From the NCBI RefSeq assembly GCF_057098645.1, contig NZ_CM169472.1: 64,000 nucleotides of DNA; one strand, 5' to 3'. The position numbers and the translations under genes are program-made. Below are positions 24,485 to 31,289 of the stretch, piece by piece (positions within the stretch are counted from its first letter, which is position 1; each line of letters starts with the position of its first letter). The notes beneath the pieces are model-generated. The model searched no databases. It worked only from the letters and a program-made list of their open reading frames with translations, and had not been told where the DNA came from.

Positions 24485-24813
24485 CTTTGCTGTATATCGA
24501 GCAATGCCATTATGTGCATAAAATTGGCATTGCTCTTTTTTCGCCACGAAATGCCCCCATTCTACGGTCTATGCCTTTATTTTCTTTTATCAGAGAAGAT
24601 TTTAATTTTATTTTATCAATTTGTTAATCATTACACCTCTATTTATATTTTTCGCCACTCCGCCATTCTCCCTGACAATTTTCTTGTGGAACAAAGTGTT
24701 ATTTAAGCAACAAGCAAATCACTCTGTCTCTTTAGACAAATTTTGACATCAAACATGATTTTTTTCGATATATATGTAAATATATAGCGATTTTAATTAT
24801 CAGGATATAACTT

Positions 24814-25836
24814 ATGTCACTAACCAGACGGAGGTTTACACAGATTCTTGCGTCGACGTTGTTGATGCATCATCTGCCTTCTTTTGCACAATCAGTCAAA
24901 TTCTGGGCCTCACTGACGCTTCCCGAAGCCCAAAACATTACACGCATCGTCAGCGCAGGTGCGCCCGCCGATTTGCTATTGCTGGCTGTCGCGCCAGAAA
25001 AAATGGTCGGTTTTTCCTCTTTTGATTTTGCCCGTCAGGCATTAATTCCATTGCCAGAGCACATTCGCCAGTTACCCAGGCTGGGACGACTCGCCGGGCG
25101 CGCCAGCACACTCTCGCTGGAAGGGCTTATGGCGTTACATCCCGATTTGGTCGTTGATTGCGGCAATACGGATGAAACCTGGATCTCCCAGGCACGGCAG
25201 GTTAGCGAACAGACACAAATACCCTGGTTATTGCTTAACGGGAAACTGGAGCAATCAGCAGAACAGTTAACAACGCTTAGCAAAACGTTAGGCGAAGAGC
25301 ATCGCGCCGCAGAACAAGCCAATCTCGCCAGCCGCTTCGTTGGTGAAGCTCAGGCATTCGCCACCTCACCCGCCGCTAACCTCCGCTTTTATGCTGCGCG
25401 CGGTCCTCGAGGGCTGGAAACGGGCTTAAAGGGTTCGTTGCATACCGAGGCGGCGGAATTATTAGGTTTGCACAACGTCGCGCAAATAGCCGATCGCCAC
25501 GGCCTGACACAGGTTTCCATGGAAAATCTCCTGCGCTGGCAGCCGGATATTATTCTGGTTCAGGAGGCCGTTACTGCAGACTTTATTCGTCGTGATCCTC
25601 TCTGGCAGGGCGTGAAAGCCGTTGCGGAACAACGCATCTTATTTTTAAGTGGCTTGCCCTTTGGCTGGCTGGATGCCCCACCGGGAATCAACCGTCTTCT
25701 GGGATTACGCAGACTTCACGCCTGGCTGGATCCCGCCATCAATCGCCAGTTTAAAAGTGACATGCAGCATTACGCCCAACTGTTCTGGCATTGTTCACTC
25801 AGTGACGCCGACTATCAAAAATTGGTGGCGAGCTAA
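24814..25836 (+). CDS. Periplasmic substrate-binding protein, class III (FecB/BtuF/FhuD-like), possible Tat-type signal (TRRRFTQ)
   Basis: 340 aa; N-terminal signal; first gene of a translationally coupled operon (TAATG overlap with next gene). Confidence 0.75.
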   Translation: MSLTRRRFTQILASTLLMHHLPSFAQSVKFWASLTLPEAQNITRIVSAGAPADLLLLAVAPEKMVGFSSFDFARQALIPLPEHIRQLPRLGRLAGRASTLSLEGLMALHPDLVVDCGNTDETWISQARQVSEQTQIPWLLLNGKLEQSAEQLTTLSKTLGEEHRAAEQANLASRFVGEAQAFATSPAANLRFYAARGPRGLETGLKGSLHTEAAELLGLHNVAQIADRHGLTQVSMENLLRWQPDIILVQEAVTADFIRRDPLWQGVKAVAEQRILFLSGLPFGWLDAPPGINRLLGLRRLHAWLDPAINRQFKSDMQHYAQLFWHCSLSDADYQKLVAS

Positions 25837-26816
25837 TGAGAATCGTAAACGGATGTATTTTGCTGCTGGCAGCTATCAGTATCACTTTTGCCGCCGTAAG
25901 TGGGGCTTATCATCTCGATATGCAGCAACTGCTGGCGCTAATTCTTCGTCAAGAAAATGTTCCTGTGCAGGAACAAATTGTCTTCTGGCAAATCCGCGTG
26001 CCGCGTATTCTTGCTGCGCTGTTACTGGGCGCGGCGCTGGCAGGAGCCGGAACCACCTATCAGGGAATGTTGCGTAATCCCTTAGTTTCACCGGATATTT
26101 TAGGCGTCTCCGCCGGTGCCGGACTTGGTGCCTGCACGGCAATTCTGTGGGGATTATCCATTATTTACATCCAGCTGTACGCATTTTGCGGCGGGCTGAT
26201 GGTGGTCGCGGGCGTCTGGTTGATTACGCGTCGGGTGACCCGCCACGATCCGATCTTAACCCTGGTGCTGGTAGGCATTGCGTTAGGAACGTTGTGCGGA
26301 GCGGGGATATCGCTAATTAAAACGCTGGCCGATCCTTACACCCAGTTACCGTCAATTACCTTCTGGTTGCTGGGGGGACTGTCCACCGTGACCTTACGCG
26401 ATCTCTGCTATGCTGCACCGATCATTCTCATAGGCTCCTTGCCCCTGTTTTTTCTCCGCTGGCGCATGAATTTACTCACGCTTTCCGACGACGAAGCCCG
26501 TTCGCTGGGACTGAACGTGACGCGTCTGCGCTTTGTATTGATTGTCTGCGCCACACTAATCACCGCCAGTACGGTAGCAATAGCGGGCATAATTGGTTGG
26601 GTCGGCCTGGTCGTTCCGCACATTGCCCGCTTGTTGACCGGTCATAACCATCAGCAGCTGTTGCCCATGGCAATGTGTACTGGCGCGATTCTGCTCCTGC
26701 TTACCGATACGCTGGCACGCAGCATTGGAACAACAGAAATCCCACTTGGCATTCTGACCGCTTTTGTTGGCGCACCGTTTTTCCTGCTTTTGTTGTTACG
26801 CGGAGGTCGCCAGTGA
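25836..26816 (+). CDS. ABC importer permease, FecCD/BtuC family
   Basis: 326 aa, polytopic; GTGA start-stop overlap with the downstream ATPase. Confidence 0.8.
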   Translation: MRIVNGCILLLAAISITFAAVSGAYHLDMQQLLALILRQENVPVQEQIVFWQIRVPRILAALLLGAALAGAGTTYQGMLRNPLVSPDILGVSAGAGLGACTAILWGLSIIYIQLYAFCGGLMVVAGVWLITRRVTRHDPILTLVLVGIALGTLCGAGISLIKTLADPYTQLPSITFWLLGGLSTVTLRDLCYAAPIILIGSLPLFFLRWRMNLLTLSDDEARSLGLNVTRLRFVLIVCATLITASTVAIAGIIGWVGLVVPHIARLLTGHNHQQLLPMAMCTGAILLLLTDTLARSIGTTEIPLGILTAFVGAPFFLLLLLRGGRQ

Positions 26817-29244: not shown

Positions 29245-29269
29245 TTCTTTGTTAAACGGAATTTATTCT

Positions 29270-31240
29270 ATGAGACTCAAAAAACATTATCTCTGCACAG
29301 CATTATCACTTGCCTTTACCCAGCAGGCCGTAGCGGCTCAGGAGAGCGACTCGCTGACCGTATGGTCCAGTCCGGTATCATCGACGACGACCACCGTTCT
29401 CGATCAACCCACCATGAAGGCCCTGGATAAACAGAATGTCGCTCAGGCATTAAGTGTCGTCCCCGGCGTGGTGCTGCAAAAGTCAGGCAGCCGCAACGAA
29501 GAACAGGTAAAAGTTCGTGGCTTTGATAGTCGGCAGGTGCCGGTCTATTTCGACGGTGTGCCCATTTATGTTCCCTATGACGGCAACCTCGATCTGGCGC
29601 GGATTCTGACCAACAATCTGGGGGCAGTCGAAGTTTCCAAAGGGTATTCGTCGCTGCTTCAGGGGCCTAATCAGATGGGCGGAGCCATTAATATCACCAC
29701 CCAGAAGCCAACAAAACCTCTGGAAGCAAGTCTGGGATATCGCCAGGGATGGAGCCGTAGCCAGGACAATGCCTACGATATGCATGCTTCATTTGCCGCC
29801 AGTAGCGATCTGGGGTATTTGCAAGTCAGCGGTAGCCAGCTAAAGCAGGATTTTCTCGGCCTGCCGCATGGTGTAAATAATGATATTGCAGGCAAACACG
29901 GCAAGATGATTAATTCATCGGCTGATGATAAACGCGGCATTGTGAAGCTCGGATTTACACCACGTGAAAACGATGAATACACACTGACTTACATTAAGCA
30001 GGATGGTGAAAAAGATAACCCGCCATACAGCGGAAATAGTGGTCAAAAATCACGCTACTGGCAGTGGCCAGAGTATGACAAAGAAAGTTTTTATTATCAG
30101 GGAACGACCCAACTAAACGATCGTTTTACCCTGAAAAGTCGGCTGTATCGCGACACCTTTGAAAATACGCTGATGATGTACAACTCGCTGGCTGATTTGA
30201 AAAATAAAAAAGGCAGCTACAGCCATTATTCCGATTACAGCGACGGTGCCGGATTACAACTGGCAGCCGATGTGCGTGAAAACGATCTGCTGTCGTTTGC
30301 CGTTAACTGGAAAGATGACGTACACCGGGAAAAAGGTGCGCCGCACGCCGCTTACGATCGCTATGAAGATCGTACCTGGTCGCTCGCCAGTGAATATCAA
30401 TGGGCTGCTGCCGATAATGTCGATGTCGTGGCTGGAATCAGCTATGACTGGCGCGATAGCGTAGAAGCGAAAAAACACGAGAAAGATGGCAGCATCACCC
30501 ATTATGACGACAACAATCAGTCAGCTTTTAACTGGTAGGTGATGGGGAAATACCACTTTGTCAATGAAGACACGCTGGCGCTTTCGTACTATGACCGCAC
30601 ACGCTTTCCGACGCTGAAAGAACGCTATACCACATCCAAACCTGCGTATAACCAGATAGCGATTGTTAACCCGCAGCTCAAGCCGGAACGCGCTCGCGGG
30701 GTGGATTTAACCTGGAATGGTGCCTTCACGCGCGACTGGGGATTTGAGGTCAGCGTTTACTATAACCGGGTGAGTGATGCCATCCTCTCGCACAATATCG
30801 ATGCCGATACCATTCAAAATCAGAACAGCGGCACGGTGGATTACAGCGGTCTGGATGCCGGTATTAAGGGGAAAATCAGCAATATACTGGATGTAGGATT
30901 GAGCTACGCCCTGATCCACGCTGACGCCAAACGCAAAGACATCGGCAAGATAACCGATCTGCCAACGCAGACAATGACCGCATGGATGACACTCAAACCA
31001 TGGGAGCCGTTAAGCGTAACGCTGTCGGAAGAGGCGCGATCCTCCAGCTACAGCAACAGTGACGGTTCACAAAAAGCCGCCGGTTTTGCGGTGACCCACA
31101 TTCGAGCCGATTACACCTTAGGTCATGGCTTCAGCGTCAATGCGTCGGTCAATAACCTGTTTGATACCCAATATGCCTACAGTGAAGGGTTTATTGAAGA
31201 AGGCCGCAATTTCTGGGCAGGTGTCGAGTATACGTTCTGA
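29270..31240 (+). pseudogene. TonB-dependent outer-membrane receptor interrupted by a single in-frame TAG (30536-30538)
   Basis: ORFs 29249-30538 and 30539-31240 are in the same frame and abut; signal peptide and TonB-box-like DSLTVW at N-terminus; receptor-type C-terminus ...WAGVEYTF. Confidence 0.75.
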
Positions 31241-31289
31241 TGTGAAAGCGGATAGCGGCATCTGTATCGCTATCCGCCTTATGAAAATC

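Follow-up and report, generated by a model that had tools for sequence, protein, structure and literature searches.

The locus and its predicted ModE operator

Six co-oriented genes (24814-31240) lie between the stop codon of treA (24484) and the convergent gene ymgE (stop 31290) in the stretch of 64,000 nucleotides from contig NZ_CM169472.1 (assembly GCF_057098645.1) that was analyzed here and is referred to below as the window. They encode the periplasmic binding protein, permease and ATPase of an ATP-binding cassette (ABC) importer, a methyltransferase dependent on S-adenosylmethionine (SAM), ModD and a TonB-dependent outer-membrane receptor (Table 1). The cluster has been counted as an iron-uptake system in genome papers. 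In our analysis, we considered its predicted regulation by ModE, its conservation and its probable cargo, which make a molybdenum-scavenging system more probable.

Table 1 Features of the operon and its flanks, in window coordinates.
Feature	Coordinates	Strand	Description
Intrinsic terminator of treA	24499-24541	+	11-bp stem (24499-24535), 15-nt loop, U6; -18.6 kcal/mol, z = -3.2
-35-like hexamer TTGACA	24743-24748	+	TTGA invariant in 9 aligned orthologous upstream regions
Predicted ModE operator	24764-24791		TTCGATATATA-TGTAAA-TATATAGCGAT; 1 mismatch to the E. coli consensus
Periplasmic binding protein gene	24814-25836	+	Class III (TroA/BtuF-like), MolA-related, twin-arginine (T-R-R-x-F) signal peptide
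Type II ABC importer permease gene, FecCD family	25836-26816	+	Nearest solved relative H. influenzae MolB (HI1471)
ABC ATPase gene	26813-27571	+	GTGA overlap with the permease gene
Class I SAM-dependent small-molecule methyltransferase gene ('yc73')	27581-28393	+	Contains FDMGCGPGT
ModD gene (TIGR01334)	28390-29244	+	Quinolinate phosphoribosyltransferase paralogue; ATGA overlap with the methyltransferase gene
TonB-dependent receptor gene ('prrA')	29270-31240	+	656 codons; TAG inside at 30536-30538
Perfect 11-bp hairpin between the receptor gene and convergent ymgE	31248-31277		-18.9 kcal/mol, z = -3.05; hairpin kept in K-12

A sequence-only reading of this stretch had placed the six genes between treA and ymgE, joined by the overlaps TAATG, GTGA and ATGA, and had pointed out the methyltransferase motif given in Table 1; our analysis agrees on all of these points and on the gene content, and all six ORFs are found on the + strand at the coordinates of Table 1. 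The remaining intergenic gaps of the operon are 9 nt (between the ATPase and methyltransferase genes) and 25 nt (between the ModD and receptor genes). The GC content is 52.5% for the operon, as compared to 52% for treA, and the spacer of 330 nt that separates the two is AT-rich, with 31% GC.

The E. coli ModE consensus is ATCGNTATATA-N6-TATATANCGAT, as quoted by Rodionov et al. (PMC545781). The predicted operator in the spacer is the sole match to this consensus with 3 mismatches or fewer in the window, none being expected in shuffled sequences. For comparison, the experimentally known K-12 operators of modA (CGTTATATT-GTCGCC-TACATAACG) and moaA contain 4 mismatches each. ModE acts as a repressor at modA, and as an activator, from upstream, at moaA. 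The predicted operator ends 22 nt before the ATG of the binding-protein gene, where the corresponding distance is 17 nt at the repressed modA promoter and ~173 nt at moaA.

When nine orthologous upstream regions (from Escherichia, Citrobacter, Raoultella, Enterobacter, Klebsiella and Symbiopectobacterium) were aligned, TTGA(C/T) and the operator were the only conserved blocks in DNA that had otherwise diverged. The operator is also retained, with 3 mismatches, in ST131 (B2 lineage). As TTGA(C/T) is found just upstream of the operator, the -10 element must fall inside the operator, an arrangement expected of a repressor site. This geometry thus suggests repression by ModE, rather than activation. 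It should be noted that a generic sigma-70 promoter scan did not call the operon promoter, which was placed by the conserved TTGA(C/T) alone. Control of the operon by ModE and molybdate is, in our assessment, highly probable.

The operon invites comparison with modABC and the ModE regulon of E. coli, with which it shares the operator consensus, a similar distance to the start codon and a predicted derepression when molybdate is scarce. ModABC, however, belongs to the type I importers, uses a class II binding protein and has neither an outer-membrane receptor nor enzymes, while the six-gene operon is accessory and absent from K-12, the strain in which the ModE regulon was defined.

With the treA terminator on one side and the hairpin between the receptor gene and ymgE on the other, the operon is insulated at both ends. 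A 64-codon open reading frame (ORF; 24512-24706) was considered as a leader gene and ruled out, as an indel between O145 and ST131 breaks its frame. Within the 330-nt spacer, functions could be assigned to the final 70 nt only.

Recurrence of the operon and of ModE-type sites

For the comparison, 80 ModD loci, one genome per species, were gathered through the ModD alignment, and 1.49 Mb of sequence was searched for ModE-type sites. All six genes, in the same order, are found in 47 of these 80 loci, from more than 15 genera and with protein identities down to ~45-50%. The genera include Escherichia, Citrobacter, Raoultella, Enterobacter, Klebsiella indica, Serratia and Symbiopectobacterium, as well as Pantoea, Erwinia, Pectobacterium, Affinibrenneria, Proteus, Morganella and Providencia. 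The pairing of an importer with a methyltransferase and ModD, which the sequence-only reading had singled out as unusual, is hence real and not an accident of E. coli.

A ModE-type site (with at most 4 mismatches) is located upstream of the binding-protein gene in 42 of the 47 six-gene loci, at a distance of mostly ~20-35 nt from the start codon. A second such site, 11-50 nt before the receptor start, is present in 24 of these 47 loci, and in all 24 the gap between ModD and the receptor gene is at least 98 nt. In Proteus, Morganella, Providencia and Pectobacterium, for example, this gap measures ~120-300 nt and contains a ModE-type site of its own for the receptor. Such a site before a separated receptor gene would place the receptor independently under the same control. 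Altogether, 66 of the 89 ModE-type sites in the searched sequence fall at these two positions, with most of the rest adjoining ModD or ModA-like genes. This distribution represents a strong phylogenetic footprint, consistent with ModE control of the whole system, receptor included.

Several individual loci deviate from this picture. In Citrobacter koseri NCTC10786 (locus L016), the binding-protein match is partial and 48% identical, the permease has no match and the ATPase match is shortened. The ModE site and the genes for the methyltransferase, ModD and the receptor are retained; the importer part may be decaying. Affinibrenneria salicis carries two full six-gene clusters (L045 and L046) ~770 kb apart on one scaffold, with the same match coordinates and identities, in which 251 nt, and not ~25 nt, separate the upstream ModE-type site from the predicted start of the binding protein. 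A 3.2-kb contig labeled 'MAG: Collinsella sp.' (L005; MAG, metagenome-assembled genome) encodes an ATPase, a methyltransferase and ModD that are 97-99% identical to those of E. coli, and is almost certainly a binning contaminant. Finally, extra ModE-type sites (0-3 mismatches) are found several kb from ModD in Sodalis, Acerihabitans-like and MAG loci (at 2270-2297 in L069, and at ~3.1-3.6 kb in L072 and L075-L077).

Importer, receptor and the iron-uptake label

Among solved structures, the permease is closest to MolB (HI1471; 223 bits), followed by FhuB (171), BhuU (167), HmuU (163) and BtuC (144). For the ATPase, the best type II match is HI1470 (MolC; 124.6 bits), as compared to 118.7 bits for FhuC, a margin that is too small to discriminate between them. 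In Haemophilus influenzae Rd, HI1469 is modA, HI1470-72 are molABC and HI1473-75 are modD-salX-cysU, the whole being described as a 'secondary molybdenum transporter' (PMC3928620). MolBC-A is a molybdate/tungstate importer and its genes are repressed by molybdate, through a regulator described as unknown (PMC4031551). The operon resembles this region (HI1470-HI1473) in having a type II importer and a class III binding protein beside modD. It differs in the addition of a TonB-dependent receptor and a SAM methyltransferase, in the twin-arginine signal of its binding protein and in its predicted canonical ModE operator.

In a profile search with the binding-protein family, 4pag scored 165 bits, 4ovk 72 and MolA (3psa) 60, the last being third with E = 1e-15. 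The AlphaFold model of the protein (AF2, predicted local distance difference test (pLDDT) score of 87) gave a TM-score of 0.78 to 4pag and of 0.68 to MolA, which came second, with YiuA and the heme, B12 and siderophore binders ranking lower in this fold comparison. MolA is the only functionally characterized protein among the top matches. The N-terminus of the binding protein (MSLTRRRFTQIL) belongs to a set in which the motif (S/T/N/H)-R-R-x-(F/L) is found in 16 of 18 aligned orthologues, the other two of which seem to be truncated. This twin-arginine motif predicts export of the folded, possibly ligand-bound, protein by the twin-arginine translocation (Tat) pathway, which is unusual for ABC binding proteins.

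Import of a corrinoid or of another non-molybdenum cofactor, with ModE regulation absent or incidental, was also considered. The best NCBIfam match of the permease is a BtuC model (239 bits, with a cut-off of 461), the ATPase matches F420-0, heme and corrinoid models, and the methyltransferase is weakly similar to corrinoid-protein-associated and precorrin methyltransferases. All of these scores, however, are well under the curated cut-offs, MolB is ahead of BtuC by ~80 bits, and the conserved ModE operator would be left without an explanation. Moreover, Rfam families, including the cobalamin and molybdenum cofactor (Moco) riboswitches, gave no match in 24300-31500 at E ≤ 1, such that neither a cobalamin riboswitch nor any other Rfam element is seen upstream. 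We consider corrinoid or similar import to be very improbable.

The receptor presents a signal peptide (MRLKK...AVAA/QE), a TonB-box-like DSLTVWS, a plug homologous to those of FecA, ShuA and FyuA, and a C-terminal YTF with the final Phe. It scores below the NCBIfam cut-offs for TonB-siderophore (125 bits, cut-off 223.5), TonB-hemin (125, cut-off 317) and BtuB (78, cut-off 600). In the window, the in-frame TAG listed in Table 1 falls at receptor codon 423 of 656 and interrupts the barrel, where the closest genome, RM10425, has CAG, as do the nearest O145:H28 genomes in general. A 76-nt probe across codon 423 matched 2110 complete E. coli genomes, none of them without a mismatch; as TAG was found in none of the 2110, the codon is either private to this sequence, as a very recent mutation, or an error of sequencing. 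Annotations of RM10425 (O145) and of an ST131 strain show an intact receptor gene. With its receptor cut at codon 423, the system encoded by this sequence probably lacks a working outer-membrane step.

The cluster itself was reportedly first described by Guyer in 1998 under the name prrA-modD-yc73-fepC, and Ye and Xu (2001) are cited for the proposal of iron uptake in PMC12928451. It appears in the literature as the prrA-modD-yc73-fepC cluster, O157 S-loop#83/OI#55, ECs1693-1699 and Z1961-Z1966 (PMC1890555; PMC2323221; PMC12928451), and was, by homology, 'proposed to be involved in iron uptake' (PMC1890555; PMC12928451), a label that is ~25 years old. As the locus already has these names, it is neither a new discovery nor an oddity that had gone unnoticed. 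Nonetheless, full-text literature searches found no functional study of the cluster, and the literature that was found contains no experimental characterization that would make it a well-characterized system with a known substrate.

In those reports, the cluster is found in O157 but not in K-12, O26, O111 or O103 (PMC2323221 Table 5), and also in extraintestinal pathogenic, avian pathogenic (APEC) and adherent-invasive E. coli B2 strains ('GR9 ymgE..treA'; PMC12928451). The window derives from an O145:H28-like E. coli chromosome, with an 8-kb query being ~100% identical to strain RM10425 and its relatives. The methyltransferase and ModD segment is found, nearly always on the chromosome, in 2140 of 5426 complete E. 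coli genomes (39%), with about 97.5% identity or more. As stated in the sequence-only reading, K-12 (MG1655) carries only ycgY between ymgE and treA. The last 24 nt of the receptor gene (GCAGGTGTCGAGTATACGTTCTGA; 31217-31240) and the downstream hairpin are retained in K-12, adjoining ymgE; from these 24 nt onward K-12 is identical to the window and upstream of them it is unrelated, while on the other side the sequences diverge directly after the treA stop. As K-12 retains the end of the receptor gene, its arrangement is not an empty site: the ycgY segment has taken the place of the operon, and one of the breaks lies within the receptor gene. That ycgY is a remnant of the operon was ruled out, as K-12 shares just those last 24 nt.

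The iron label, taken as Fur-controlled uptake of a ferric siderophore or of heme with an irrelevant ModE-like palindrome, has arguments in its favor. The operon proteins show family-level homology to the FecCD, FepC, TonB-siderophore and TonB-hemin models, and the three papers cited above place the cluster among iron-uptake loci. There is also a Fur-box match of 14/19, the best of any intergenic position, at 24783-24801. This match is marginal, however, as it was reached by 19 of 500 shuffles of the AT-rich spacer and conservation of its distal AATTATC arm is already lost in E. albertii and Citrobacter, while the ModE operator is conserved across genera; no Fur box with 3 mismatches or fewer was found anywhere in the window. 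The overall layout of the operon (a receptor with a plug and a TonB box, a binding protein of class III, a permease of the FecCD family and an ATPase) is shared with the classical TonB-dependent type II ABC uptake systems Fec, Fhu, Fep, Hmu/Chu and Btu. Unlike these systems, the operon has no conserved Fur box or B12 riboswitch that we could find and no equivalog-level match, all NCBIfam iron, heme, B12 and F420 equivalogs being far below cut-off for its proteins, and it has two cytoplasmic enzymes embedded in it. With the permease clearly nearer to MolB than to FhuB, HmuU or BtuC, with ModD linked to molybdenum everywhere else (see below) and with a literature label based only on homology, iron or heme uptake is, in our view, unlikely.

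ModD, the methyltransferase and the cargo

ModD scored 504 bits against TIGR01334 (cut-off 178.85) and 134.9 bits against the NadC model TIGR00078, under its cut-off of 198.4. When aligned with the quinolinate phosphoribosyltransferase (QPRT) of Mycobacterium tuberculosis, it retains seven of eight active-site positions (R105 as K94, R139 as R130, K140 as K131, H161 as H152, R162 as R153, E201 as E195 and D222 as D216), while the position of K172 is taken by Phe163, an invariant residue of the ModD alignment. The catalytic roles of these M. tuberculosis residues are taken here to be those of the 1QPR work. ModD is probably still an enzyme or an anion-binding protein, yet not a quinolinate phosphoribosyltransferase.

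In loci without the six-gene set, ModD is found next to ModA/ModB/ModC-like genes in Yersinia alsatica, Gilliamella and Cedecea, next to a di-Mop protein and a WtpA-like importer in an Enterobacterales MAG, near ModE/Mop-like genes in Sodalis, Acerihabitans and others, and with ModA and ModE in an Alcaligenaceae MAG. ModE-type sites are again frequent in these loci. The name ModD comes from the modABCD/modDABC operons of Rhodobacter capsulatus and Geobacter. As in the three genera named first, ModD is encoded in these operons together with a molybdate importer, a pairing that the present operon would share, although their transporters are of the ModABC type and they include neither a receptor nor a methyltransferase. 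In Geobacter, modDABC is preceded by an E. coli-type ModE site (PMC545781 Table 6). Wherever its genomic context can be read, ModD is linked to molybdenum.

The methyltransferase represents a separate, strongly conserved family, and its class I SAM domain is a generic one (Methyltransf_25/31/12/11). Its model (pLDDT 87) resembles MitM, AtmM, alkaloid and phosphoethanolamine N-methyltransferases and BioC, with TM-scores of ~0.5, and no match by sequence or fold was found to the metalloid methyltransferases TehB, ArsM and those of the TPMT type. The modeled fold points to a small-molecule substrate and to nothing more specific. The methyltransferase travels with ModD in the receptor-linked operons, in Edwardsiella and in Leminorella, and is absent where ModD accompanies a ModABC-type importer. 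The pair occurs without this transporter in four Edwardsiella loci (L025, L043, L044 and L051) and in Leminorella (L057); a ModE-type site was found upstream of the pair in three of the four Edwardsiella loci, whereas L044 and the Leminorella locus showed none. Downstream of the Edwardsiella pair come an ORF of 115 aa that matches nothing in Pfam or NCBIfam and genes for a ThiF/MoeB-like adenylyltransferase, a 2OG-Fe(II) oxygenase and a DMT transporter, while in Leminorella a TetR regulator gene lies upstream. Reading the enzyme chemistry from these neighbors was attempted and dropped, as they are suggestive of small-molecule metabolism but are not interpretable.

Taken together, the operator, the MolB-like permease, the MolA-like binding protein and the context of ModD argue for molybdenum or tungsten, and not for iron, heme or B12. 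The position of the sequence-only reading, that the substrate cannot be read from the sequence, was thus too pessimistic. A molybdenum or tungsten species is, on balance, the probable cargo. For the operon as a whole, we favor, with reasonable but not high confidence, a molybdate-responsive, ModE-repressed, TonB-dependent system for the acquisition of molybdenum (or tungsten) that is built with the architecture of siderophore and B12 pathways. In such a system, low cytoplasmic molybdate would cause ModE to leave the promoter-overlapping operator, and the six genes would be transcribed as one unit. The receptor, energized by TonB, would carry a molybdenum species over the outer membrane and concentrate it in the periplasm, where the Tat-exported MolA-like binding protein would deliver it to the MolBC-type type II importer. 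The co-translated methyltransferase and ModD would then act in the cytoplasm on the imported species or on its ligand or carrier. The operator, its conservation and the homologies are seen in the sequence itself, whereas repression by ModE, molybdenum as the cargo and every step that involves the methyltransferase and ModD are what we infer here.

This interpretation has some drawbacks that need to be considered. Both the regulation and the cargo are inferences from sequence, and the molybdenum model assigns no necessary role to the methyltransferase or to ModD. The binding protein is just ~20% identical to MolA and is nearer to the uncharacterized Sulfurospirillum protein 4pag. The weak Fur-like match overlaps the right arm of the predicted ModE operator. 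The operon is missing from 61% of complete E. coli genomes, including K-12, and is therefore accessory to ModABC. Class III binding proteins and TonB-dependent receptors mostly carry organic chelates or cofactors and not free oxyanions, molybdate is able to cross porins, and ModE controls non-transporter genes as well. MolA binds molybdate weakly, with a Kd of ~100 uM (cited in PMC3928620), and all earlier papers label the cluster as iron uptake, by homology alone (PMC1890555; PMC2323221; PMC12928451).

In one variant, the cargo would be not free molybdate but an organic complex of molybdenum or tungsten (a 'molybdophore', a catecholate-molybdenum chelate or a pterin/Moco-like cofactor), and the methyltransferase and ModD would process its N-heterocyclic ligand. 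Such a complex is favored by the presence of the two enzymes, of the receptor and of a class III binding protein, while MolA and the link of ModD to ModABC argue for the free oxyanion. The combination of receptor, type II importer and class III binding protein is the one found in importers of chelates or cofactors, the fold of the methyltransferase is of the small-molecule, natural-product type, and the seven retained QPRT positions suggest that ModD is probably an enzyme acting on an anionic N-heterocycle. The translational coupling of the methyltransferase and ModD genes, their pairing under a ModE-type site in Edwardsiella in the absence of the transporter and the twin-arginine signal in 16 of 18 binding-protein N-termini are also consistent with this variant. 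On the other hand, ModD often accompanies ModABC-type importers of naked molybdate without any methyltransferase, so that destruction of a ligand is not its general role; the operon encodes nothing for the synthesis or export of a secreted chelator; MolA, the nearest characterized binding protein, binds the free oxyanion; and nothing in the sequence identifies a ligand. We therefore regard an organic complex as a tentative proposal with a rather low probability. The same low standing is given to its two possible mechanisms, in which the enzymes would either free the metal once the complex has been imported or synthesize a ligand with which the binding protein is charged before Tat export. Within these limits, the suggestion of the sequence-only reading, that the enzymes modify a heterocyclic or chelate ligand, may hold.

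In full-text searches, no paper was found that connects a TonB-dependent receptor and molybdate with the cluster or with any homologue of MolBC. Nor were the reassignment from iron to molybdenum, the conserved double ModE control or a description of the operon as MolBC-A/ModD with a receptor and a methyltransferase added found in the searchable literature, although the site may have been noticed earlier in silico.

Molybdoenzymes such as nitrate, dimethyl sulfoxide and trimethylamine N-oxide reductases and formate dehydrogenases power the anaerobic respiration by which Enterobacteriaceae bloom in the inflamed gut and grow in urine, and tungstate poisoning of the molybdoenzyme pathway has been reported as an experimental intervention. 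The system is relevant to gut and urinary pathogens that depend on these enzymes. A 2025 account of molybdate uptake lists only ModABC and the outer-membrane route of Pseudomonas, which involves the type VI secretion system, ModA and IcmP (T6SS-ModA/IcmP; PMC11734730). If our interpretation is true, a TonB-energized molybdenum route would be a new class of receptor cargo, present in O157, O145, ST131, CFT073-type and APEC lineages and in Proteus, Morganella, Providencia, Citrobacter and Raoultella, but not in K-12. A locus that is counted as an iron system in genome papers would then be reassigned, and its absence from K-12 would explain why K-12-based studies of the ModE regulon missed it. 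The operon would also offer an experimental handle on ModD, a protein without an established function. Should the organic-complex variant be true, it would provide the first biochemical function for ModD, and molybdenum would join the metals that are contested at the outer membrane.

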